In this document: in pieces, positions 13,094 to 26,250 of the stretch
How positions within the stretch are numbered: position 1 is the stretch's first letter
How the letters are laid out: each line of letters starts with the position of its first letter
Assembly: GCA_963765585.1 (NCBI GenBank)
Contig: CAVXXB010000002.1
Span: 55,841-119,840, forward strand
From: Calditrichia bacterium
GTDB lineage: Bacteria; Calditrichota; Calditrichia; JAJRVZ01
Direction of reading: 5' to 3'
Length of the DNA stretch: 64,000 nucleotides
The notes under the pieces: generated by a model
Told to the model about the DNA's origin: nothing
Seen by the model: only the letters and a program-made list of their open reading frames with translations
Database searches by the model: none
Made by a program: the position numbers and the translations under genes

Positions 13094-16000
13094 TTATTTA
13101 GAGGAATTGTTGTTAAAAAACTGACTAAGCGCATCGCTTAGTGTTTCAACATTGTATGGTTTGTTTAGTACTCCAATAAATCCATATTCACTATAATTGG
13201 CCATAATCGGATCATTTGAATAGCCGCTGGATACGATGGCCTTTACCTCCGGATCAATTTTCTTTAATTCCTTAATTGTGTCCTTGCCACCCATCCCGCC
13301 AGGAATGGTAAGATCCATAATTATGAGATCAATCAAATCGCCATTTGATTTTGCTGACTTATATTTTTCCAGTGTTGTTTCACCGTTTTCAGCTTCATCC
13401 ACTTCGTATCCCAAATAGTCCAGGATTTGAGACAATAATTCACGAACCATAATATCGTCGTCCATCACAAGAATCTTTCCCCGGCCGTTGTGGACCTGTG
13501 GTTTTATATTCTTTTCAATCCTGGCTTCTTTTTCAGTGGCAGGCAGAAAAAGTTCGACGGTAGTACCGCTCCCTACTTCCGAAATAACATTAATATGACC
13601 TTCGTGACGCTTAATAATTGAGTAAGTGGTTGTGAGTCCCAGACCGGTTCCTTTTGATTTGGTGGTAAAATATGGGTCAAAAATTTTATTCAAATCCCGT
13701 TCGGGAATACCAACACCCTGATCAATAATTGAAATTTTTGCATACTTTCCGGCACTAAGTCCGGGATACTCCTCATGAGCAAGTACCTGATTATCGATTT
13801 TAATAAGTATTTTTTTATTATCTTTTACTGCCTGTTGTGCATTCAATATAAGATTCTGAATCACCTGGCTTATCTGGCCAGCATCCACCACCACATTCCA
13901 TAAATCATCAGGGCTTTTAACTTCGCAAAATATATCCGAACCACGAAGTGTAAAATTGGCCGAGTCCTGGATAATGTCCACAATGGATGTGGTTTTCCTT
14001 AGTGGTGCGCCGCCCTTTGAGAATGTTAATAATTGATGTGTCAGTTCTTTCGCCTGGATAATGGCTTTCTCCGCCCGTGCCAGTATCGGATTAATTTTTT
14101 TATCACCACGGGATTGCATTCTGGCAAGCGAAACATTGCCCAGAATTGCCGTAAGAAAATTATTAAAATCATGTGCAATTCCACCAGCAAGCACACCGAT
14201 AGAGTCTAATTTTTGCACCTTGGCAATCTCTGCTTCCATGTGCTTTTTGGTAGTCACATCTCTGAGCGCAGCCACCATACCAAACAATTTACCTTCATGA
14301 TTTTTAATCGGCGCCGCACTGAGTTCAATCTGGTATTTTTCTCCGGAGCCCGATTCAAGAATAATATCTTTCACCAGCGAAACCGGTTTTTTACTCTTCA
14401 TTACATCTTCTAATAATGCGACAGGTCCCTTACTGTCCAGTATTTTCACCACATCTGGAAACCGGAACCCGACCCCTTCATCATTTTCAAAGTCAAGCAT
14501 CTGACGTGCGCGGTCATTTAACAAGACAATAAAACCTTTGACATCTGTGGTAATAACCGCATCTTCGATAGAACTAAGCGTTACATCAAGCCGCTCCTTC
14601 TCTTCCATTACGGCATTCTCTGCCTGCTTTCTTTCGGAGATGTCACGAATCACGATCTGTCCGGCAATCTCCCCTTCAAATGAAATTGGTGCGCCGATGA
14701 GTTCAACTTCAATCAGGGATCCATCCTGACAGATCATCTTTTGTTCAAGATTGCGGAAGGGTCTTTTTTCAACAAATATTTTCTTAATCTTTTCGCGGGC
14801 TTCGCTAAGATAATCTGGATGAATCATACCAAAAATTGATTTACCAACCAGTTCTTTCTGCCGCAAGGCACCCAGAAGTCTCAATCCGGCCCGGTTGATA
14901 TATTCTATTCTCTTTTCACTATGAACAATGATTGCATCCGGTGACAATTCGATCAACCGGCGATATCGTTCTTCACTCTCCTTCAGTGCATCTTCGGCAT
15001 GTTTCTTTTCGGTGATATCCCTTTGCAATCCCCAGGCCCGCAACAACTTATTATTTTCAACAATACCGACCAGGCTATTCAGAAAAACACGCAAGTTTCC
15101 AAAATGATCGATTTCATATGATTCTTCATCCATCAGGCGGTATCCAGATTGGATAAATTTTTGCAGATATTCTATATTTCGTGGATTGTCGCGGCTTAAT
15201 AATTTATCAAGCGGTAATCCAATCATTTGATCAACATCATCATACCCGTATAATTTTGCCATGGCCTGATTACATTCGGCAAGAAATCCGGAGTCATAAA
15301 ATCCTTCAATCTGCTTACGATTAGAAATCGAGGTACGAATTGGTTCCTTAAATTCAATAGACCATATTGCTTCAGTACTATATGTAATGAAGGTCTTATA
15401 TTTTTCCTCGCTCTCGAGAAGCGCGCGATAGGCTTCCTGAGTCTTCTCTTTTTCTACAACCAGTTCATGTGTACGCTCCTGAACCCGATCTTCCAGTTTT
15501 ACGTTGGTCTTTTCAATTCGCTTTACTCTTCGCTTATGTTCCGCAAATATCAGTGTTGCAATCAGCACAATCCCAAGCAGATAAAACCAGGCGGCTTGCC
15601 AAAATGGTGAGTCTATTTCGAAAGGATAAATGGCAGGGCTACTGCTCCAGATTCCATCATTATTTTTTGCCAGCACCTTAAATGTATAAACCCCCGGACT
15701 CAGATTGGTATAGCGGGCATAGTTATCCGGAGTCTCGGGTGACCATTCTTCTTCTAAACCTTCAAGTATAAATTTATAACGGATTTTCTCAGGGGCGACA
15801 AAACTCAACCCGATATATTTAAAAGTCAGATGATTATCACGGTAGGAAAAAACATGCGGATGTCGATTTTCGAACTCGTTATAGAATACACCAATATCCG
15901 TTATTACTATTGCGGGTTCCGCATTATTATAATGATCTTCAGATGGATTATACTTAATGACGCCATCTAAAGTACCAAACCACAGACAGCCGGTTTCGTC

Positions 16001-17836
16001 CATACAGACAGCATTTTGATTTGTCTCAACTGCATGGAATCCCTCGTACTGTCCATAGATCTTGGATTCTCTCGTTACATGATTAAATCTTTCAATACCC
16101 CTGCGTGTGCCCTGCCAGATATTGTTTTCTTTGTCACAGACTAAAGAATAGGCCGCATCGCCACTTAAACCATCTTGCTTGGTATAATTAATAAACTCAG
16201 ATCCATTATACCGAATCAAACCCTTGTCTTCCGAGCCGATCCAGATGTGACCATTGAGATCTTCGGTCAAACAAACAATCGCTTTGGCATCAAATCCATC
16301 ATTACTGGAAAATTTATAGAATGTCTCACCATCATATCTCGATAACCCGCTCTTTGATGTAGCAATCCAGAGCACTCCAGATGTATCCACCAGCAAGGAA
16401 AAAATAAAGTCGCCGATCAATCCGCTTTCAGGGCCATAATGCTGTAATTTTTTCTTCGCTCTGTCATATCGATACAGTCCACCGCCATTCGTACCAAACC
16501 ACAGATATCCATTATGATCTTCTACTATACAGAGAACATCATCCTTAATTTGTGATAAATGACGACCAAATTTATTCGTCTTTGGGTTAAAAACCTGAAC
16601 ACCACCCCGGGTTAAACCTACCCAGATCAGACCATTTTTATCCTCAAACAAAGAGCTAATTTCTCTTCTCGCCAGGCCATTTTTCAGGGAGATTACTTTA
16701 ATATCCAGATCATCGGCACGAGAATCCGGCCGGTAGCGTACCAGGCCCTTTTCTGATCCAAACCAAAATTGTCCCTGCTTGTCCTGAATAATAGCCCAGA
16801 TAGTTCTGTCGGGCAATCCTTCCGAAGTACTAAGGAACTCAAATCGCCTGTCCCTGAACTGGCATAGCCCGCCGCCGTTAGTGCCAATCCAGATTGATCC
16901 TTCGCGGTCTTCAAATATGCATTTAACATCCCGATAACTCAGTCCGTGCTTCTCTGTCAAGAATAAAAACTCGTCAGAACCAGGTTTAGAGAGCAGGTTT
17001 ACACCACCAGTTCGTGTACCAATCCATATTCGTTTTTTTGAATCCTGAAATATTACCTTTACTTCGTTGGAGCTCAGTCCATTCTGAGTGTTAAATATTT
17101 TAATGATATTATCATCTGCTGAAATAAAATAAAGTCCCGAATTCTCAGTGCCTATCCAGATATTTTTATCCTTGTCAACTAAAATATCTGTGATATCCAT
17201 ACCTTTCAGGATGCTCAAACTTTTTATATCCTGTTTTCCGGTTAATGACTGGTCTGTTACATAAAGGATGTTTACTCCGTCTGTCGTTCCTATCCATAAT
17301 TCATCATGGTTTAGAAATCCCAGACAGTTAACATTATTACTATTCAGTCCATCCTGCCTGGTAAAATTAATCCAGCGTGTGCTATCGAGACAAAAGACAC
17401 CTCCGCCGCCGGATGCAAACCAAAAACGGCCATAAACATCTTCAATGATATCATCGATTTGAACACCCCGTATCTCCGGTATGACATCAACGGGCGTAAT
17501 TTCTCCAGTATGTGTGTTTAGTTTTGATATGCCGTGGGTACGGTAGGCGAGCCATATATTTTGTTGGGAATCATAAAAACTGGCAAGGATATAATTAGAT
17601 TCAAGTCCATTTTGAGTGGTGTAGCTTTGGAACTGCCTGCCGTCAAACAGGGCCAAACCATCTCGTGTACCGATCCATAGGTATCCCTGTTTATCCTGGT
17701 GAATGGACTGCACCTGGGATTGGATCAAACCCTCGCGTACATTGTAATTACGAAAAGGAATTCTTTGTCCCTCAGAGAGCGAGCTCAGAAATCCGATTAT
17801 TAATATGAAATATGGCCAGATTTTCCAGGTAGTCAT
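13094..17836 (-). CDS. Hybrid sensor histidine kinase: beta-propeller (Reg_prop) + YYY, TM, 3 PAS, HisKA, HATPase, REC
   Basis: Repeated D..G.(L/I)WIGT motifs, YTNLSPGVYTFKV, AGGIAHDFNN, FDPYFTTK..GTGLGL, C-terminal REC MDLTIPG. Confidence 0.93.
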   Translation of the reverse strand: MTTWKIWPYFILIIGFLSSLSEGQRIPFRNYNVREGLIQSQVQSIHQDKQGYLWIGTRDGLALFDGRQFQSYTTQNGLESNYILASFYDSQQNIWLAYRTHGISKLNTHTGEITPVDVIPEIRGVQIDDIIEDVYGRFWFASGGGGVFCLDSTRWINFTRQDGLNSNNVNCLGFLNHDELWIGTTDGVNILYVTDQSLTGKQDIKSLSILKGMDITDILVDKDKNIWIGTENSGLYFISADDNIIKIFNTQNGLSSNEVKVIFQDSKKRIWIGTRTGGVNLLSKPGSDEFLFLTEKHGLSYRDVKCIFEDREGSIWIGTNGGGLCQFRDRRFEFLSTSEGLPDRTIWAIIQDKQGQFWFGSEKGLVRYRPDSRADDLDIKVISLKNGLARREISSLFEDKNGLIWVGLTRGGVQVFNPKTNKFGRHLSQIKDDVLCIVEDHNGYLWFGTNGGGLYRYDRAKKKLQHYGPESGLIGDFIFSLLVDTSGVLWIATSKSGLSRYDGETFYKFSSNDGFDAKAIVCLTEDLNGHIWIGSEDKGLIRYNGSEFINYTKQDGLSGDAAYSLVCDKENNIWQGTRRGIERFNHVTRESKIYGQYEGFHAVETNQNAVCMDETGCLWFGTLDGVIKYNPSEDHYNNAEPAIVITDIGVFYNEFENRHPHVFSYRDNHLTFKYIGLSFVAPEKIRYKFILEGLEEEWSPETPDNYARYTNLSPGVYTFKVLAKNNDGIWSSSPAIYPFEIDSPFWQAAWFYLLGIVLIATLIFAEHKRRVKRIEKTNVKLEDRVQERTHELVVEKEKTQEAYRALLESEEKYKTFITYSTEAIWSIEFKEPIRTSISNRKQIEGFYDSGFLAECNQAMAKLYGYDDVDQMIGLPLDKLLSRDNPRNIEYLQKFIQSGYRLMDEESYEIDHFGNLRVFLNSLVGIVENNKLLRAWGLQRDITEKKHAEDALKESEERYRRLIELSPDAIIVHSEKRIEYINRAGLRLLGALRQKELVGKSIFGMIHPDYLSEAREKIKKIFVEKRPFRNLEQKMICQDGSLIEVELIGAPISFEGEIAGQIVIRDISERKQAENAVMEEKERLDVTLSSIEDAVITTDVKGFIVLLNDRARQMLDFENDEGVGFRFPDVVKILDSKGPVALLEDVMKSKKPVSLVKDIILESGSGEKYQIELSAAPIKNHEGKLFGMVAALRDVTTKKHMEAEIAKVQKLDSIGVLAGGIAHDFNNFLTAILGNVSLARMQSRGDKKINPILARAEKAIIQAKELTHQLLTFSKGGAPLRKTTSIVDIIQDSANFTLRGSDIFCEVKSPDDLWNVVVDAGQISQVIQNLILNAQQAVKDNKKILIKIDNQVLAHEEYPGLSAGKYAKISIIDQGVGIPERDLNKIFDPYFTTKSKGTGLGLTTTYSIIKRHEGHINVISEVGSGTTVELFLPATEKEARIEKNIKPQVHNGRGKILVMDDDIMVRELLSQILDYLGYEVDEAENGETTLEKYKSAKSNGDLIDLIIMDLTIPGGMGGKDTIKELKKIDPEVKAIVSSGYSNDPIMANYSEYGFIGVLNKPYNVETLSDALSQFFNNNSSK

Positions 17837-17957: not shown

Positions 17958-20267
17958 TCATCTCTTTATCTTTAAAATCCGCAAGCCATTAAAGATAACA
18001 ATCAAACTGGCACCCATATCTGCAAATACTGCCATCCACAGAGTGGCATAACCTGGCAATGCGAGACCCAAAAAGACAAATTTTAGGAATAATGCAATAA
18101 AGATATTTTGTTTCACAATTCTCAGTGTTTTGTTACTCAACAACCTTAAAAAAGGAATTTTCTGTAAATCGTCATCCATTAACGCGATATCAGCCGTTTC
18201 CAGCGCAGTATCTGAACCTCTTACTCCCATGGCAATCCCGATATCCGCAGCAGCAAGTGCAGGTGCATCATTTATCCCGTCTCCAAGCATGGCTACCGTA
18301 CCGTTATTTTCGCGTATCTCTTTGATTATTCTTAATTTATCCTCGGGTAACAATTCCGAATGAACCTCGTCAATATCAGCAAACTTAGCAATTGTTTCGG
18401 CTGTTTGATGATTATCTCCGGTAAGCATTAATATCTTTTTGACACCCAATTCTTTCATCTCCTGAATAACCGAGGCAGATTCTGCCCTTAGTTCATCCCC
18501 GATGGCGATTATACCAATAATCTGATTGTTTTTACCAACCAGCACAGTAGTATGATTCTCATCTTCAATCGAAGTAATCAGTTCGTGAATATCATCATTG
18601 CAAATACCATTTTCCTCAAACATTCTATGACTACCAATAAGGATTTCATCACCGCCTGATTTTCCCATAATCCCGCTACCGGTTATCGTATTAACATCCT
18701 CGGTTCTTTTTGTGGTTATACCATGTTTCTCAGCATAGGTAACAATTGCACTGGCAAGTGGATGGTTCGAATGTATTTCCAGGGAAGCAGCAATTGATAA
18801 TATATCTTTTTTATCATGATTTTTTAGTGAAATCACTTTTTGTACTTCCGGCATCCCTTTTGTCAGGGTCCCGGTTTTATCAAATGCAATTGTGTCGATT
18901 TTGGAAAAATTTTCTAAAAAGAGTCCACCCTTTATCATAATTCCTTTTCGGATGGCATTGGTTAAACCACTGATAATTGAAACCGGTGTTGATATTACAA
19001 ACGCGCATGGACAGGCAATCACCAGTAAGACAAGTGCGCGGTAAATCCATTCATGCCATGATAAATGAAATAAAACTGGTGGAAGAACGGCAATCATTGC
19101 TGCTATTGTCATGATGATGGGAGTATAATAGCCGGCAAATTTTTCAACAAACTGTTGACGGGGGGCTTTTTGGGTTTGTGCATCAGTTACCAGCTGGGTG
19201 ATTTTGCTGTATGTACTGTCAGGAAATGTTTTTGTCACCTTAAATTTGAGATATCCATTTTTATTAAGGGTACCGGCGTGTACCAATGAATCCACCACCA
19301 CTCTGACCGGCATGCTTTCTCCGGTAATCATGGACTGATCTATATGAGATTCTCCCGAGACTACAATGCCATCGGTGGGAATACGTTCTCCTGCCTTTAC
19401 AGCAATGATATCACCTAAATTCACCATTTCCACCGCAATAATATGTGTTTCCTCGCCATTTACAATCCGTGCGGTGACCGGGCGTTCTTCCATCAGGTTG
19501 CCAATGGATTTCCTGGCTCTTCCCATGGACCATGACTCCAGATACTGCGCCAGAGCAAAAAGAAATACCACCATCGCTGCCTCAGTCCATTCTCCCAACA
19601 CCACCGCCCCGATAACAGCGACACCCATCAACAAATTCATTCCAGGTTTCGCAGAACGTAATTCAGTCCATCCTTTTATGGCGATTGGATAACCACCAGT
19701 TAGCACTGCCAGTAACAAACTGCTTTTGGCCGAAATTTCAAATCCGGCAAATTGCAGCAGAATCATGCCGGCGGTTAAAAAGATCAGGCAAAATATAATT
19801 CTGGGAAGTTCGAGGCGACTAGATTCTTTTGATTCTTTATGTGTGCCAATAAATGTAAAATCTATCTCTGTGTCTTCCAATTTTGACAGCAATTGAGGTA
19901 CCGGTATGGTATGGTTAACGATCACCCTGCTTTCTTTCCAATCATAGGAGACTTTAGTTATCCCTGAATCAGAATCGAAAGTTTTTATTGTTTCCCGGAT
20001 CTGATTTTGTGAATATGTCTTATCAATTTTAAAAATACTTGATATGTGACCGGGCTGTAATATTTTATAGCCGGCAGATTTTACTACCGACGCAACATTG
20101 CTATCGATTGACTTATCGGAGGAATGGGATAGTTCAAGTGTACCGCTAAAAAGATTAACTTTAACATCGCTTATACCGGGGATTTTTTTTACTGAATTTT
20201 CGACATGCAGTGCACAATCAGCGCAATCCATCCCGGTAACAGTATATGTGGATTTTATTTTAGACAT
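17958..20267 (-). CDS. cadA: P1B-type heavy-metal (Zn/Cd/Pb) exporting ATPase, CadA/ZntA-like
   Basis: GMDCADC HMA domain, TGES, CPC, DKTGT, HP, GDGIND, TM ADMG. Confidence 0.92.
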   Translation of the reverse strand: MSKIKSTYTVTGMDCADCALHVENSVKKIPGISDVKVNLFSGTLELSHSSDKSIDSNVASVVKSAGYKILQPGHISSIFKIDKTYSQNQIRETIKTFDSDSGITKVSYDWKESRVIVNHTIPVPQLLSKLEDTEIDFTFIGTHKESKESSRLELPRIIFCLIFLTAGMILLQFAGFEISAKSSLLLAVLTGGYPIAIKGWTELRSAKPGMNLLMGVAVIGAVVLGEWTEAAMVVFLFALAQYLESWSMGRARKSIGNLMEERPVTARIVNGEETHIIAVEMVNLGDIIAVKAGERIPTDGIVVSGESHIDQSMITGESMPVRVVVDSLVHAGTLNKNGYLKFKVTKTFPDSTYSKITQLVTDAQTQKAPRQQFVEKFAGYYTPIIMTIAAMIAVLPPVLFHLSWHEWIYRALVLLVIACPCAFVISTPVSIISGLTNAIRKGIMIKGGLFLENFSKIDTIAFDKTGTLTKGMPEVQKVISLKNHDKKDILSIAASLEIHSNHPLASAIVTYAEKHGITTKRTEDVNTITGSGIMGKSGGDEILIGSHRMFEENGICNDDIHELITSIEDENHTTVLVGKNNQIIGIIAIGDELRAESASVIQEMKELGVKKILMLTGDNHQTAETIAKFADIDEVHSELLPEDKLRIIKEIRENNGTVAMLGDGINDAPALAAADIGIAMGVRGSDTALETADIALMDDDLQKIPFLRLLSNKTLRIVKQNIFIALFLKFVFLGLALPGYATLWMAVFADMGASLIVIFNGLRILKIKR

Positions 20268-20275
20268 TTAAATAA

Positions 20276-20572
20276 TCATTCCTCGACATGGGTTTTTGCC
20301 ATGGCAATTAACTGTTCGACATGCGAGTCATCCAGTGAATAAAACGCACTTTTGCCCTGTTTGCGGTATTTTACCAGTTTCATTGATTTCAGAAGCCGGA
20401 GTTGATGAGATATGGCCGACAAAGACATACCCACCTGGATGGAGATATCTGTAACCGGCAGTTCGGATATCTGGAGAACAGATAAAATTCGTAAACGCGT
20501 GGGATCGGCCAGAATGCCAAATAAGTCGGCCAGGGCCTGAATGGTTTCTGATTTTGGTAGTTCTGTTCTCAT
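20276..20572 (-). CDS. ArsR/SmtB-family metal-sensing repressor (alpha5 site type)
   Basis: LADPTRLRIL, SAISHQLRLL, alpha5 metal site DSHVEQLIAMAKTHVEE (DxHx10HxxE); cotranscribed with ATPase. Confidence 0.92.
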   Translation of the reverse strand: MRTELPKSETIQALADLFGILADPTRLRILSVLQISELPVTDISIQVGMSLSAISHQLRLLKSMKLVKYRKQGKSAFYSLDDSHVEQLIAMAKTHVEE

Positions 20573-20632
20573 TTTCTATTATATGACCCTGATTATAAAT
20601 TTAACTGTTAAAAAAATCAGGAGGCAATACTA

Positions 20633-20662
20633 ATTATACTTGAACAATTGTTCAAATATAAT
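20633..20662. promoter_or_regulatory. SmtB/CadC-type operator palindrome
   Basis: ATTATAC-TTGAACAATTGTTCAA-ATATAAT: perfect 16-bp core, one mismatch over 30 bp, 60 bp upstream of the repressor start; TGAACA..TGTTCA is the SmtB/CzrA-type core. Confidence 0.85.
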
Positions 20663-20693
20663 ATTATGTATTTACAAAAGCAATGACTTTATA

Positions 20694-20739
20694 TCATCCT
20701 GAACTTGCCTGGCCTGAATTTATTTCAGGGTTTCAGGAT
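20694..20739. repeat. Nested palindromic REP-like element
   Basis: TCATCCTGAACTTG [CCTGGCCTGAATTTATTTCAGGG] TTTCAGGAT: a CCTGAA..TTCAGG hairpin inside another. Confidence 0.55.
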
Positions 20740-20916
20740 AAGTAATCAATTATTATAGGATTCCGAACCCACGAGCAAAGTTTGGGAGACCGATATACGA
20801 AGTATATTTAATTATTTATTATTCGTGCTCTTCGTGAACTTCGTGGTGAGTAAGATATGTGATATATTGAAAATTTAAGATGGTTTGTTGAAAAAGACGA
20901 ACACTGGGTTTTTTAA

Positions 20917-20954
20917 TAAAAAAAATCGTTCCCGAAAAAAAATTCAGGAACGAT
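20917..20954 (-). terminator. Rho-independent terminator downstream of ahcY
   Basis: Minus strand ATCGTTCCTGAA-T6-TTCGGGAACGAT followed by long T-run. Confidence 0.75.
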
Positions 20955-21006
20955 ATATTTGCTTGAACTATTCACTTCCGCCAGGGCGGAATTTACAAAG
21001 GTGCTT

Positions 21007-21118
21007 AATTGCAAATTGTAGAATGTGCAATTAGGAATGAGGAGTTAGAAATGATTGAATTATTTTATTAATTTTAAATTCCTAATTTTCTTTTCTGCGC
21101 CTCTGCGCCTCTGCGAGA
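21007..21118. repeat. Degenerate 7-mer tandem repeats with inverted partner, plus 8-mer CTGCGCCT repeats
   Basis: aattgca/aattgta/gaatgtg/caattag/gaatgag/gagttag then ttttaaa/ttcctaa; ctgcgcct ctgcgcct ctgcgaga. Confidence 0.55.
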
Positions 21119-21155
21119 GAATAATTATCCTGGTTGGATCTATGATGAATTTATT

Positions 21156-22412
21156 TCAGGTACCCATTTCCCAGGAAGCCAAATATTCTTTTTGCTCTTC
21201 TGTCAGTTCATCTATGTAAATCCCCATGGCCTCAAGTTTTGCAATTGAGATCCAGTCTTCAATTTCGTCAGGAACTTCATATACCTCTGCTGAAAGATCA
21301 CGCGTCATCGCGTATTCCGTAGTCAGAGCCTGGGTAGCAAAACTCATATCCATTACACTGGCCGGATGACCTTCTGCCGCAGCAAGATTAATCAATCTGC
21401 CTTCGGCCAAAAGAAAAAGCCTTCTGCCATCGGCCATGACATACTCATCCACAAATTCACGCACATTACTGTTCTTTTTCTTTGCTAAATTTTCCAGATC
21501 TTCAATATTGATTTCCACATTGAAGTGGCCGGAATTAGTAATAATTGCTCCATCTTTCATTTCCTTAAAATGCTCACCTCGCAGGACATGAATATCACCG
21601 GTAATCGTACAAAAAAGATCGCCTTGTTTTGCAGCTTCGATCATCGGCATAACAATAAATCCGTCCATAGCTGCTTCCAGTGCGCGAATAGGATTCACTT
21701 CAGTTACGATAACATTTGCGCCCATTCCCTTCATGCGTGTGGCAAATCCTCTGCCGCACCAGCCATATCCGGCAACGACTACTTTTTTACCGGCAATCAG
21801 AAAATCAGTTGCTCTGATAATTCCATCCACCGTTGACTGACCGGTGCCGTACCGGTTGTCAAACAGATATTTTGTCTGGGCATCATTTACGGCAAACACC
21901 GGAATCTTAAGTGCGCCATCATTTGCCATGGCCCGCAAACGGATAACGCCGGTGGTTGTCTCTTCCATTGAACATATTACCTGATCACATTTTTCCGGAT
22001 ACTCAGAATGGAGAATGGAAACCAGGTCGGCCCCATCATCCATAGTTACAACCGGATCATGCTCCAGTGCGGCTTTTATATGCTCATAATAGCTTTTAGT
22101 ATTTTCACCATTTATTGCGAAGACAGAGATACCGTAGTCTTTTACCAACGAAGCTGCCACATCATCCTGGGTACTCAGCGGATTTGAGGCAACCAATACC
22201 AGGTCTGCGCCTCCGGCCTTCAAAGTACGGGCCAGGTTGGCGGTTTCTGCCGTTACATGCAGACAGGCTGCCATTTTTTTACCGGCAAGAGGTTTTTCTT
22301 TCTCAAAACGCTCTTTGATTTTTCTGAGCACCGGCATATCGCCATCTGCCCATACAATTCTTTTTTTTCCCTCAGCTGCCAGGCCAAGGTCTTTTACATC
22401 GTGCTTTACCAT
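21156..22412 (-). CDS. ahcY: Adenosylhomocysteinase (short type without the ~40-aa insertion)
   Basis: [75 protein letters not shown]. Confidence 0.97.
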
Positions 22413-22494
22413 GAGAACTCCTTGTTTGATTGATATATTAAGTTTATTGTTGTTTTTAAGTTGGTTTAGTTTAAAAGGATAAAATATAGTTCAG

Positions 22495-22560
22495 GTCATC
22501 TCGCAGAGATCTCTCGGATTGCGTGTACTGAACACGTCGAGAAGATTCCTTCGGAATGAC
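22495..22560. repeat. REP-like palindromic element, copy A
   Basis: GTCATCTCGCAGAGATC...AGATTCCTTCGGAATGAC; near-identical ends in copy at 35913-35978. Confidence 0.75.
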
Positions 22561-22610
22561 ACAAGAATCATCCTGCATCTTGTATCCTGAATCCTGTATC
22601 TTGTCTCCCC

Positions 22611-23813
22611 TCACCCCCTCTTCTTCCATATCTGAAAAAAGGATGCCAGTTGTTTTTGTTCGGTAAAGGATCCTTCATCCAATAGATCAAGGCCAAATTT
22701 GCCAATTCTTCGTTTCAATGACTGTGGATCAAATCCCAACCACAGATCATGCATCTGATCGGCAAGATCGCGCCTGCGGTGCCTGACAAAATCAACCAGC
22801 ACTAAGTTACCGTTTGTTTTCAAAATTCCGGCACACGCTTCAATTACCGAAAACGGATCCGGAATATGATGCAGGACCAATACCAGGAAGATGTTGTCCA
22901 CACGTGCCGCCCGTAGAGGAATTTGTCTTAGATCTCCTATGACCGGAACCAGGTTTTTCAGGCTGAATTCATCCCGTGTTTGTGTAATCTGGTCAATCAT
23001 CCCTTGGTCTGCATCCAATGCAAACACCTTCTGGCCTAAAATAGCCAGGGGTAAACTGACAAAACCGGTACCACACCCCAGATCAGCCGTAGTCTGCCCC
23101 TTTTTCAAATTCAGGCGGCTAATCATATATTCCAGATCAGAATCATTCAGGAAATTTGCCCGGATACGATCCCATTTTTCCGTTATCGAGGCAAAATAGG
23201 ATATTCTTTTTTTATCTATACCTTCGATAATATCAAGAGGAGGATTAAAGGGATTTATAAAACGAAATATATCGCTTATATTGATATACCCTGCCACATC
23301 TGAAAACCAATCCGGGAGCAATAGCATAATGTAGTTCTTCTGGAAGTTTTCCCGGGCTCTGGACAACAAAGCCGTTACAGATGACACTGTTATTTCCAGA
23401 TGTTGCCCGATTTCTTCATATGAGAATCCATCAATTTCGCGTAATAGCAACACCGTCTTTTGTCTTTCCGGTAATTTTATCAGAACCCGCTGAATCAGTT
23501 CCGGTTCATCGCTCTGCTTTAACCTGGTCTGCAAATGTTCCTCTTTTATCTCGGAAAATTCGCGCCTCTTTGAGGAACGGTAATAATTTATCACCCGGTT
23601 ACGCGTGACGGTAAAAAGCCAATTTTTCAAAGAACGTTGTGAATCTAACTGCGGCATATTCTTTATTGCAGAAAGATAAATATCCTGAAATAAGTCCCTG
23701 GCGACATCTGCATCAACTACAGCATTTTTTACAAAGCTGAATACTTCTGTCTCGTATGAATATAATTCTTTCCAGATTTTGTCTTGCTCAGCCACAATTA
23801 CCCTTATATACAA
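22611..23813 (-). CDS. ECF sigma-70 factor fused to a C-terminal class I SAM-dependent methyltransferase-fold domain (SahR-like sensor domain)
   Basis: Region 2 ARDLFQDIYL...LKNWLFTVTRNRVINYYR; region 4 LPERQKTVLLLREIDGFSYEEIG...LLSRAR; then YFASITEKWDRIR, DLGCGTG, ALD, GDL, VLHHIPDP, LVLVDF..H...HDLWLGF; single uninterrupted ORF; likely start GTG at 23795. Confidence 0.88.
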   Translation of the reverse strand: MYIRVIVAEQDKIWKELYSYETEVFSFVKNAVVDADVARDLFQDIYLSAIKNMPQLDSQRSLKNWLFTVTRNRVINYYRSSKRREFSEIKEEHLQTRLKQSDEPELIQRVLIKLPERQKTVLLLREIDGFSYEEIGQHLEITVSSVTALLSRARENFQKNYIMLLLPDWFSDVAGYINISDIFRFINPFNPPLDIIEGIDKKRISYFASITEKWDRIRANFLNDSDLEYMISRLNLKKGQTTADLGCGTGFVSLPLAILGQKVFALDADQGMIDQITQTRDEFSLKNLVPVIGDLRQIPLRAARVDNIFLVLVLHHIPDPFSVIEACAGILKTNGNLVLVDFVRHRRRDLADQMHDLWLGFDPQSLKRRIGKFGLDLLDEGSFTEQKQLASFFQIWKKRG

Positions 23814-23851
23814 ATGACTTGCACAAATCTTTCGCTAAGTGCAATATTTTT

Positions 23852-24491
23852 TTAATTTAGTATGGCAACGGCTCTGACCGGCGAACCGTCCGCATCAACT
23901 ATTTTTAAGGGGAAACACGAAAATATGAATTGACTATCAGGCAGTTGGTGTAAATTTGTCAAATTTTCTACAATCAATAAATCCGCAGCAAATAAAATAT
24001 GATGCACGGGCAGATCATCGGAGCCTACCGGATCCACTGAACATGCATCCAATCCTATGCCTTTTATATTTTGAGCACTCAGCCATTGTGCCGCAGCGGT
24101 TGACAAAACCGGGTACTCCTTAAAATAACTTTCCTGACCCCAATCTTGCTCATATCCGGTATTAAATATTACAAAATCGTTAATCATAAAAATTTCTTTA
24201 TTTTTCTGCAAATATTTCAAGTCTATCTGACCGTGCTTAAAATCCCGGACATCGATCAATTGTGCAGAACCATAAAATGATGTCCATCGGCATTTGATCC
24301 AGTCGTTTTCCCTCTTCCAGCATATGTGCAGGTGCATCAATATGCGTACCAATATGAGAAGTGATAACAATTTTTTTTTCATTATACCCCTGCGCTGCAA
24401 CCGTCGCATTCTGAATTATTTCAATCGGCTCTGTACCAGGATACAAAGGCATTTTTTGCTCTATCGTGTGTGATAAATCGATAATCTTCAA
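23852..24491 (-). CDS. Cyclase family / kynurenine formamidase-like metal hydrolase; one +1 frameshift near 24280
   Basis: IIDLSH, HIGTHIDAPAH, GIGLDACSVD, HHILF, IVENLTNL, DGSPVRAVA; span 640 = 3n+1. Confidence 0.85.
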
Positions 24492-24611
24492 CGCTGCTTT
24501 CCTTTGTTAAATAAAACGAGTGTTCATCTTTCAACATACTACCGGTTATCGGGATCCTGTTATATATTCATAGTGGGCAAGTTCAATACGATGACTAAGA
24601 TAACTGGTACC

Positions 24612-26207
24612 CTACAAAGATTTACTATACTTTATTGCTGATCTAAATATCTTCATGATGCCAAAGGGCATGCCCATCATCATTCCGGTACTCATGACAC
24701 CACTCATCATGGCCCCCACGATGCCATGCATACCTGTATCACCACCTGTCAGGTAGAGATTTTTAACCGGAGACTTGATTGTTAACCAGTCTGCGGAAAA
24801 TTTTTCCGGAATCGCGGGCAGACCATATATCACGCCTGCGCGGTGACCGGTAAAATGCTCGGTACTTAACGGTGTCGAGAGCTCTTTGTAATCGATTAAA
24901 TCTCTGAGTCCCGGCAAATGGGGCTCTACAAAAGAGAGCATATTTTCTGCGATTGTATCTTTTAACTGCTCATAATCGGCCCCACGATTCTTCCACGGCA
25001 AATCGGCCCATTTCTTAAAAACCGATTGATCTAAAAATGAGATCAGTTCCAGTGTATGGCTTGTGGCGGCAGGATTTTTTGCCGATGGACATGATACATA
25101 ACAAGCTCCCGTTTTGGCATTAATCAGATCATTACGATCGCGAAAGATCTGATCATGATCATATGACCCATAAATCCATAAATTTTCGCCGTCATACCCT
25201 GAATGTCTGGGATCGTCTTTTAGCCCCAGATAAAGTGTTACATTGGCTATACCGGCTGGAAATGATTCGATTTCATTTATGAATGATGGTGCAAATACAG
25301 AAGGTATCAGATCAAGATAAGTGGTCATCGCACCGGCGGCTGAGATAATAGAATCCGCAATATATTCTTTTTGCTCTGCCGATTCCTTTTTCCGGTGATG
25401 AACCACTTTGACTCCGACAGCCCTTCCTTTTTCAATAATTATTTCTGAAACTTCATGATTTACCAGAACCTCACCACCTGAAGCCTCAATGGCAGGAATA
25501 ATGTGATCGGCAATTTGTTTGGCACCACCAATGGGATACCAGGCTCCGTTCATATAGTGATCAGCTATCATGGCATGAGCTAAAAAAGCACTCTTCTCCG
25601 GGGGTAATCCATAATCGCCCCATTGCGAAGCGAGAACGGCCTGCAATTGCGGATCGGAGATATGCTAATCCAGGTAGGCTTTGGTGGTCTGCAGTGCGGA
25701 TCTGCGGCCCTTGACGGCAAGCATTTTACCAAAATATTTGACCATCCCGGGCAGGTTTCTTGCGATGCTCTGACGACCAAACCAACCTGGTGTCTTACGA
25801 TAGTCATCAACATACTGACGAATGGCAGTTGCTTCATCGGGAAACGCTTTAATCACTTCTGCAATGAACTTATCTTTTCCGGAACTCAATTCAATCTTAT
25901 GATCGGGATAGATAAATACATCATAGGGATCATTCATTTTGTTCCATTTAACTCCACCCCGGGATATAAAATCAAATATGGCGCGTGTGGGTTCATTCTT
26001 ACCCATACCACCAACATAATGCAGACCCACATCCCATTCATAACTGTTTCCTGCATTGCGCTTAAATACATGCGTAAAGCCACCGGGCTTAAAATGGCGC
26101 TCAAGTACGAGCACTTTTTTATTCCATAGCTGTGCGAGCAAACTGGCACAAGTCAGGGCACTAAGTCCCGAGCCAATAATGATGACATCATATTTTTCGC
26201 TATTCAT
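24612..26207 (-). CDS. FAD-dependent oxidoreductase, phytoene desaturase / retinol saturase-like; interrupted by in-frame TAG at 25665-25667
   Basis: YDVIIIGSGLSAL, LERHFKPGG, WDVGLHYVG, SQWGDYG, YPIGG, STPLS, NLYLTG.D; both ORF halves are in the same frame. Confidence 0.85.
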
Positions 26208-26250
26208 AAGCAATTTCTGTATTTAATGATACATCCGATGTTTCTTTTGG

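Follow-up and report, generated by a model that had tools for sequence, protein, structure and literature searches.

We have analyzed a stretch of 64,000 nucleotides from a Calditrichia bacterium (contig CAVXXB010000002.1, positions 55,841 to 119,840), referred to below as the window. On its reverse strand lies a gene in which an extracytoplasmic function (ECF) sigma factor is fused to a class I methyltransferase-fold domain, followed by ahcY, the gene for S-adenosylhomocysteine (SAH) hydrolase. The features of the locus are summarized in Table 1. A first-pass annotation, made from the sequence alone, had described one uninterrupted frame of 400 amino acids (aa) with ECF regions 2 and 4 followed by a methyltransferase fold, co-oriented with ahcY and about 200 bp upstream of it. 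All of this is borne out by the listing of open reading frames (ORFs) and by Pfam and NCBIfam matches; the distance is 198 bp, and ahcY is identified by TIGR00936. The frame opens with TTG, and the true start is probably the GTG at 23795, giving a protein of 394 aa, because the 99%-identical cluster P0001 has that length and homologues begin there. AAGGG lies six bases 5′ of this GTG. W14 is invariant in an alignment of 29 sequences, so translation must begin upstream of it. The fusion is one gene, with no sign of the two genes that the annotation had named as a risk, because no indel was seen in DNA or RNA contigs aligned to it and the architecture is uninterrupted in 66 aligned homologues. 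The DNA runs holding part of the stretch are labeled as sediment or estuary metagenomes, and contigs from RNA libraries (two runs of one study) cover 22927-23747 at at least 99% identity. No terminator-like site was found between the fusion gene and ahcY, and the hairpin with a T-run that follows ahcY is likely the end of the operon.

Table 1. Features of the fusion gene and ahcY locus, in window coordinates.
Feature	Position (strand)	Residues or length	Details
Bipartite ECF-promoter-like motif	23806..23834 (−)		CGAAAG 23834-23829, 16-nt spacer, TGTATAT 23812-23806
Fusion gene (sigma factor and presumed sensor)	22611..23813 (−)		Frame start TTG 23813; likely start GTG 23795; AAGGG 23805-23801; stop 22611-22613
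Sigma region 2	23562..23756 (−)	20-84	Pfam PF04542 Sigma70_r2, 44.1 bits
Sigma region 4.2	23349..23498 (−)	106-155	Pfam PF08281 Sigma70_r4_2, 57.1 bits
Family-specific linker	23238..23324 (−)	164-192	LLPDWF...D.xRF..PF.P
Class I methyltransferase-fold domain, presumed SAH/SAM sensor	22614..23231 (−)	195-400	Pfam, AlphaFold2, Foldseek
Spacer between fusion gene and ahcY	22413..22610 (−)	198 bp	5′ part consists of short dispersed repeats able to fold into hairpins
ahcY (adenosylhomocysteinase)	21156..22412 (−)	418 codons	TIGR00936, 618.3 bits against a cut-off of 497.6; AAGGAG ribosome-binding site in front
Intrinsic-terminator-like hairpin and T-run	20925..20954 (−)		After ahcY

The N-terminal part of the protein has the organization of an ECF (group 4) sigma factor. 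Regions 2 and 4 are present, neither region 1.1 nor region 3 gives a match, and the sigma part is about 160 aa long. There is also a match to Sigma70_ECF (24.8 bits), and every Pfam match of the fusion protein lies above its cut-off. The NCBIfam sigma70-ECF model TIGR02937 scores 83.3 bits against a cut-off of 42.9, and no named NCBIfam equivalog was reached, the best being the GFO_1088 family (101.4 against 130) and SigZ (88.4 against 212). D40 and Q43 of the DLxQD sequence of region 2.2 are invariant in alignments of both 29 and 66 sequences, as is N76 in region 2.3/2.4, where N72 is conserved in at least 90% of both. W65 and R71 are invariant in the smaller alignment and at least 90% conserved in the larger. 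The sigma module therefore looks competent, with binding to core RNA polymerase and initiation predicted from the conservation of region 2.

The sequence after region 4 extends for about 240 aa and is conserved in the 66 sequences, well over the 50 aa that distinguish ECF sigma factors with C-terminal extensions and no anti-sigma gene nearby. As the first-pass annotation had stated, no anti-sigma domain was found near the fusion gene, in a Pfam scan of four neighboring ORFs (an ArsR gene of 98 aa, a cyclase and a split FAD oxidoreductase) that did not extend to the P-type ATPase ORF at 17958-20267; neighbors at other loci were only partly scanned. The extension begins with a linker whose consensus is conserved in the fusion family only. 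P167 never varies; D181 and R184 do not vary among the 29 sequences and reach at least 90% conservation among the 66. The linker is predicted with low confidence by AlphaFold2 (pLDDT 52-59, with residues 165-210 low throughout). If the two modules are coupled, this linker is the most evident candidate for the connection.

The remainder of the protein has a class I methyltransferase fold. Methyltransf_11 (PF08241) matches residues 244-339 with 58 bits, and together with related Pfam families it spans about 237-353. The domain has an N-terminal helix with YF..WD..R, motif I as DLGCGTG, then LHH..P, and finally H345...ADxMHDLWLGF. An AlphaFold2 model made with the 29-sequence alignment has a mean pLDDT of 83.4, mostly above 90 over residues 220-400, and shows the canonical seven-strand order of the class. 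The best Foldseek matches in the PDB are small-molecule methyltransferases, 3l8d, RebM, UbiG and 3dh0 (TM(target) 0.80), with E-values of 4e-12 and weaker, and solved complexes with both SAH and S-adenosylmethionine (SAM) are among the matches. No solved ArsR-methyltransferase regulator of the SahR type was present among the Foldseek or phmmer matches to the PDB. Within motif I D244, G246 and G250 are invariant in 66 sequences and G248 is 93% conserved; D267, the acidic residue that follows strand 2, is kept in at least 90%, and D294 in 80% of the sigma-fused set. The SAM/SAH pocket is retained by these sequence criteria, and ligand binding is predicted.

The fusion is a conserved family of the Calditrichota, neither a one-off nor an assembly artifact. 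A search of 5.8 billion proteins returned 58 protein clusters that carry both the sigma and the methyltransferase Pfam domains, covering 86-100% of the query at 37-99% identity. The fusion is full-length in 13 of 41 genomes of the same class (E = 8e-83 or better), and the best match in the other 28 covers one domain only (E = 4e-26 or weaker). By family, it is found in 4 of 10 genomes of f1, to which the window's genome belongs, 1 of 5 of f3, 5 of 7 of f5, 2 of 2 of f7 and 1 of 1 of f8, and in none of the genomes of f2 (5), f4 (2) and f6 (9). Contigs representing one genome per species returned 78 loci, 20 of them full-length or truncated by the contig. Nineteen of these 20 are titled Calditrichota, Calditrichia, Calditrichaceae or Caldithrix, and the last, titled Caldisericaceae, is nearly identical to a Caldithrix locus. 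The public labels of the fusion proteins read only ‘sigma-70 family RNA polymerase sigma factor’ or ‘methyltransferase domain-containing protein’.

After removal of duplicates there were 22 distinct fusion loci. ahcY is directly downstream on the same strand in all 19 that could be assessed, with gaps of 14-287 bp, and in the remaining three the contig ends before the stop codon or no more than 155 bp past it. A complete, single-contig genome (G013) is among the carriers of the operon. The linkage to a SAM-cycle gene noted in the window thus extends to its relatives. Ten of the 19 loci have gaps of at most 56 bp, too short to hold a separate promoter. The flanking genes differ between loci, and none that is a candidate methyl acceptor is conserved nearby. 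We also examined about 2.5 kb upstream of ahcY in 27 relatives that lack the fusion (two of these loci had only 566 and 147 nt). This sequence held no ORF for a sigma factor, a sensor or an ArsR-sensor protein (at least 70 aa, E = 1e-4). The upstream genes are unrelated (BioY, cyclase, GDPD, GldC-like, ABC ATPase, beta-propeller), and split or replacement regulators were therefore rejected for these loci. Rfam gave no riboswitch match upstream of ahcY in the 20 of the 27 that were scanned.

A single conserved element precedes the pair of genes. The sequence CGAAAG-N16-TGTATAT is found in all 20 loci for which upstream sequence was available, with the spacing invariant at 16 nt; CAAAAG and TGTGTAT each occur once as variants. 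The sequence of the spacer varies, and the fusion proteins of these loci are only 36-69% identical. The −35-proximal part of the spacer is T-rich, seen as CGAAAGaTTTTT in about half of the loci. Two unlike blocks at a fixed spacing of 16 nt are the pattern expected of contacts with regions 4 and 2 of a sigma factor. The motif resembles the sigW-class promoter consensus, given as tGAAACnTTTt...CGTA, including its −35-proximal T-tract (PMC5758882, available text).

The motif is private to the fusion gene. A position weight matrix built from the 19 other sites gave one strong match in the 5.56-Mb genome, at the fusion gene (35.9 bits), and the next best scored 17.0. The exact core occurs once in this genome. 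Allowing up to two mismatches gave 163 sites, compared with 192 for a reversed-pattern control, so there is no enrichment, and these near matches were discarded as a possible regulon. Of five other genomes, four have the exact core at the fusion gene, and the fifth (G021) lacks an exact copy and has a one-mismatch variant there. G025 has two additional exact copies, antisense within a histidine-kinase gene and within a stand-alone methyltransferase gene; lying antisense in coding regions, they were treated as chance rather than as targets. There is thus no credible copy besides that of the fusion gene in six genomes, and the motif is absent upstream of ahcY in the 27 fusion-less relatives. No conserved housekeeping promoter is evident upstream of the motif, where the information content is low. 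Read most simply, the sigma factor would use the motif as its own promoter, with its own operon as the whole regulon. The first-pass annotation had expected SAM-cycle genes at large to be turned on, and had suggested looking for a motif upstream of ahcY and metK. The search yielded the element before the sigma-ahcY pair and no sign of sites at metK, metH or metF, and the predicted target narrows accordingly.

The nearest non-fusion relatives of the C-terminal domain have the architecture of SahR regulators. After the fusions, nearly all the whole-protein matches listed (P0060-P0120) are proteins of 300-350 aa with an ArsR-type helix-turn-helix domain (PF01022) followed by a methyltransferase domain. 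They match 33-66% of the query (mostly 40-46%), at its C-terminal end, with 27-38% identity. With residues 190-400 as the query, HMMER run without filters on 1.84 billion representatives returned 600 matches at E = 1e-10 or better. We classified 273 proteins, comprising the listed matches of both searches, the window protein and eight ORFs from genome loci, with purpose-built hidden Markov models: 122 are ArsR plus sensor, 73 sigma plus sensor, 69 the sensor alone, 8 doubled and 1 unclassified. The ArsR-type winged helix (HTH_5) has no match in the fusion protein. The nine nearest loci outside the Calditrichota all encode HTH_5 plus Methyltransf_11 in 313-350 aa, and belong to Planctomycetota, Sumerlaeota, Fibrobacterota, Bdellovibrionota and one unclassified bacterium. 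In seven of the nine the gene is directly upstream of ahcY and co-oriented with it, which is the position of the fusion. We call these relatives SahR-type from their architecture and ahcY context, the comparison containing no experimentally studied SahR sequence. SahR is described as an SAH-responsive repressor with a core regulon of sahR, ahcY, metH, metF and metK (available text of PMC4239095, PMC8877191 and bioRxiv 10.1101/803072). The first-pass annotation had SahR sensing SAM; the effector given in the first two of those sources is SAH.

The signature by which the annotation had recognized a SahR-type sensor is present, all of its quoted peptides being in the translation, and it is common to 118 ArsR-fused domains. 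In these the conservation is F207 95%, W214 94%, D215 80%, R218 80%, H315 97%, H316 84%, P320 98%, H345 100%, W358 90%, G360 100% and F361 98%. A FastTree phylogeny was built from 258 sensor domains. Of the 72 sigma-fused ones, 69 make one clade with three fragments and two ArsR forms (support 88), and this clade falls within a clade of 203 members (support 98) that holds 118 ArsR-fused domains and leaves out 46 of 62 stand-alone ones. An IQ-TREE analysis (LG+C20, quick search) was run on 80 rows, the rest having been dropped by random sampling within each class. It makes the Calditrichota sigma-fused domains monophyletic (94; core 99), so a single origin of the Calditrichota fusion is supported by the sequences.

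A second, divergent clade of sigma-plus-sensor proteins lies outside that of the Calditrichota (P0202, P0230 and P0237, 410-438 aa). It has HDFW(S/P)GF in place of HDLWLGF, and a linker containing WF. Members of two of its three clusters are named Bacillus sp. Bva_UNVM-123 and Robertmurraya andreesenii. A metagenome scan for the genomic context of this clade returned sigma-only matches. Bacillaceae usually recycle SAH without ahcY, and the target of their clade may differ.

We propose, with a probability of roughly 55%, that the fusion protein is a one-component ECF sigma factor that responds to SAH and serves only its own sigma-ahcY operon. The two genes would form this operon, and sigma regions 2 and 4 would recruit RNA polymerase to the one private promoter before the fusion gene. 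The C-terminal domain would bind SAH, or read the balance of SAH to SAM, and ligand binding would release or activate the sigma module through the conserved linker. The holoenzyme would then fire at the motif, and ahcY would be transcribed, with or without the sigma gene. A build-up of SAH should in this way lead to more transcription of SAH hydrolase, with shut-off as SAH falls. Activation by SAH is proposed because the ArsR-fused members of the sensor family answer to SAH and guard the same gene, and the operon itself is the proposed target because SAH hydrolase is the sole conserved partner gene and the sole conserved motif precedes the pair.

The same architecture might follow another logic. 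SAM could be sensed instead of SAH, for example with the SAM-bound form off, or the extension could be a ligand-independent structural part needed for sigma activity, a role that has been suggested for extensions of other ECF sigma factors. SAM and SAH share one pocket in this fold, as the solved complexes among the Foldseek matches illustrate. The effector of SamR, a relative of SahR, is stated to be unknown (PMC4239095, available text), and no small ligand is known for the C-terminal extensions by which other ECF groups act (PMC7826278, main text). Against this, SAH would be the natural signal for SAH hydrolase, the sole conserved output, and the strict conservation of the pocket residues argues for ligand binding. 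Moreover a methionine-synthesis gene of this genome is already served by a SAM-I riboswitch, and we consider this alternative unlikely. The riboswitch is the single SAM-I match, at G000:C8:34278-34391 (−) (locus L182, 85.7 bits), in front of a gene for O-acetylhomoserine sulfhydrylase. It thus appears that separate sensors govern the synthesis of methionine and the removal of SAH.

A number of observations weigh against an SAH-activated sigma factor. The first is that the motif abuts the start codon. With start codons chosen by protein alignment and distances read by eye, the start lies 5 nt after the first T of TGTATAT in eight loci, 7 nt after it in six, and 15-25 nt after it in six, including 17 nt in the window. 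ECF sigma factors usually initiate about 12 nt after the first T of the −10 block. At such distances transcription would therefore start on or after the start codon, and the sigma gene would be poorly translated or untranslated from a motif-driven transcript. It is possible that the transcripts are almost leaderless, or that the sigma-dependent transcript serves only ahcY with the sigma factor made from another promoter, or that the element is an operator.

If the element were an operator the control would be negative, as in SahR. The sigma-like module, or the holoenzyme, would form a roadblock over its own translation start and repress an operon run from an upstream housekeeping promoter until released by SAH. 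In favor of this, 14 of the 20 loci have the motif no more than 7 nt from the start codon, a position more fitting for an operator than for a promoter. SahR also acts as a repressor (PMC4239095, available text), and the available part of a 2022 review describes HrpL as an ECF sigma factor whose holoenzyme blocks a promoter. However, the unlike half-sites, the fixed 16-nt spacer and the −35-proximal T-tract have the anatomy of an ECF promoter rather than that of the SahR operators, which are 20-bp palindromes in the available text of PMC4239095. The residues of region 2 for core binding and melting are conserved in 66 sequences, and would be needless in a mere DNA-binding protein. The upstream housekeeping promoter is also not evident as a conserved element. 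Negative control is thus rather improbable.

A second set of observations concerns the C-terminal domain. A methyltransferase fold alone does not prove a sensor, and the stand-alone proteins of about 210 aa and the doubled ones conserve the signature residues just as well. The signature therefore defines the domain family and not a sensor subset, and in this respect the recognition of a SahR sensor by its signature went too far. In two Calditrichia genomes the stand-alone homologues lie in unrelated contexts, one with UPF0047 and DUF2520 and the other with VIT1, a cyclase and methyladenine glycosylase. They are beside neither a sigma gene nor ahcY, and were set aside. The stand-alone protein (about 213 aa; L130:3195-3836 and L133:3176-3820) has the same signature residues as the regulators, and is found in Calditrichia genomes both with and without the fusion.

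The protein could be bifunctional, an active methyltransferase acting on itself, RNA polymerase, a nucleic acid or a small molecule, with ahcY clearing the inhibitory SAH and the sigma factor ungated. All the SAM-pocket motifs are intact, the best structural matches (RebM, UbiG and 3dh0) are real enzymes, and the best NCBIfam match of the stand-alone members is of the UbiE/MenG type, below its cut-off (84.8 against 158 bits). Yet the nearest multi-domain relatives are regulators placed before ahcY, and pairing with one gene and one private motif fits a dedicated regulator. The flanks vary between loci, with no conserved acceptor gene. To our knowledge class I methyltransferases have no universal catalytic residue, so that activity cannot be read from the sequence. 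We regard a bifunctional enzyme as having a small chance of being correct, and return to the SAH-responsive sigma factor.

The remaining points against that proposal are of several kinds. The fusion is dispensable, since 28 of 41 relatives do without it. In three genomes of the same family the cyclase gene is followed directly by ahcY with no fusion between, so the fusion gene has been cleanly inserted or lost there. The first-pass annotation inferred that an ArsR module had been replaced by a sigma factor, and named clustering of the sensor with SahR domains as a test. FastTree does group the sigma-fused with the ArsR-fused domains, and it alone does so; IQ-TREE places the sigma-fused clade neither inside nor next to them, with deep support of at most 78. 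Judged from these trees, descent of the sigma-fused domain from SahR is plausible. The AlphaFold2 model has a pTM of 0.52 and no confident arrangement of the sigma and sensor domains. The RNA-library contigs show no 5′ end, no strand and no bridge to ahcY, and could be DNA carry-over. Ligand binding and transcription by this system are likewise predictions from sequence.

The fusion is a new form of the ECF sigma factors with C-terminal regulatory extensions. The first-pass annotation knew of no ECF group with this architecture, and we too found no description of such a fusion in the ECF literature that is searchable as full text. The ECF reclassification names 19 groups with C-terminal extensions, and the types described in its available text are SnoaL-like, TPR, Cys-rich, DUF1835, multi-helix membrane and short RCE/D. 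None of the terms ‘methyltransferase’, ‘adenosyl’ or ‘Calditrich’ appears in its main text, and a small or ungrouped entry in its supplements is possible (PMC7826278). In the available part of the 2022 review of non-canonical ECFs, a methyltransferase appears only as a neighboring gene, the O6-methylguanine methyltransferase of ECF122. The extended groups (ECF41, 56, 294, 295 and 205 with SnoaL-like domains, ECF42 with TPR, ECF238, 287 and 288 with Cys-rich segments and ECF264 with DUF1835; PMC7826278, main text) share with the fusion a sigma2-sigma4 core, a fused domain of more than 50 aa, the lack of an anti-sigma gene nearby and a conserved motif upstream of their own gene. The fusion differs in that its extension is a presumed SAM/SAH-binding Rossmann fold of a metabolite-responsive repressor family, there being no methyltransferase fold among the types named, and in that its predicted output is an enzyme of housekeeping metabolism and not a stress regulon. 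CorE2 with its metal-binding extension (PMC7826278) and the iron sensor OrbS (PMC9023288) also unite sensing and promoter recognition in one polypeptide. They respond to metal ions through short Cys-rich segments, whereas the fusion has a whole domain predicted to bind an organic metabolite.

Compared with SahR and SamR (available text of PMC4239095; Novichkov et al. 2014 as cited there), the fusion has a homologous methyltransferase-fold effector domain with the same signature residues, and a corresponding position upstream of ahcY, a core SahR target (seven of nine ArsR-type loci and 19 of 19 assessable fusion loci). The DNA-binding module is different, being ECF sigma regions 2 and 4 instead of an ArsR winged helix, and the cis element is an asymmetric −35/−10-like pair instead of a palindrome. 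Positive control is expected for the fusion rather than repression, and its targets are apparently limited to its own operon. A functional analogue would be the SAH riboswitch (RF01057) upstream of ahcY, which gives SAH-dependent activation in cis. That element is RNA-based, and no Rfam family matched the window at the gathering threshold. In permissive mode the region 20200-24600 gave chance-level matches only, and on these two results a riboswitch in the spacers was rejected. RF01057 gave no match in the genome, but the control genomes gave none either, so that its absence is not established.

ECF sigma factors are known as envelope or stress responders held by anti-sigma factors, or as proteins with extensions whose ligands are unknown or metals. 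We suggest tentatively, and with less conviction than the proposal itself, that the fusion could be the first example of direct gating of a sigma factor by a central metabolite. An SahR-type SAH sensor would have been transferred, at the ahcY locus itself, from the DNA-binding domain of a repressor to an ECF core, converting SAH-relieved repression into SAH-activated initiation at a single private promoter. With the promoter on its own start codon, the sigma-dependent transcript could serve ahcY alone, keeping the level of the sensor constant while the output rises. If this is right, one-component metabolite sensing would extend from repressors and riboswitches to the specificity subunit of RNA polymerase, and sahR-ahcY and sigma-sensor-ahcY would represent a clean natural module swap of repressor and sigma factor at one locus. 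The fusion would also offer a defined ligand candidate for studying the control of ECF sigma factors by C-terminal extensions. The Bacillaceae clade hints that the design is older and wider than the Calditrichota. ECF sigma factors have been used as orthogonal parts (PMC5829568 and PMC10880074), and a system as compact as this, with one protein, one promoter and one output, could therefore become an SAH- or SAM-responsive expression switch.

The 198-bp gap in the window is inflated by short dispersed repeats, for example around GTCATTCCGAAGGAATC. The repeats have 50 matches in the genome (blastn-short), hairpins are predicted within them, and the spacer has a minimum free energy of −39.7. In a genome of the same genus the gap is only 48 bp. 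The long spacers of loci L019, L024 and L038 are also filled by similar hairpin-forming inserts.

Some neighboring genes are broken. The cyclase-family gene upstream of the fusion (23852-24491 (−)) is split into two overlapping frames, 24237-24491 encoding the N-terminal part with HxGTHxDxPxH and 23852-24409 the remainder. Relatives have one intact ORF of 211-223 aa, and the split is either a frameshift or a sequencing error. The next gene, for an FAD/NAD-binding amine-oxidase-like protein (24612-26213 (−)), is broken into adjacent ORFs of 182 and 344 aa, and its homologue in genome G002 was likewise matched as two tblastn pieces. On the other side of ahcY is a metal-efflux pair, consisting of the ArsR gene at 20276-20572 and the P-type ATPase at 17958-20267. 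Downstream of this pair, and unrelated to the fusion, an ORF of 1580 aa (13094-17836 (−)) encodes a hybrid sensor kinase, in whose translation beta-propeller-like repeats, PAS domains, a histidine kinase and a receiver were recognized by eye.

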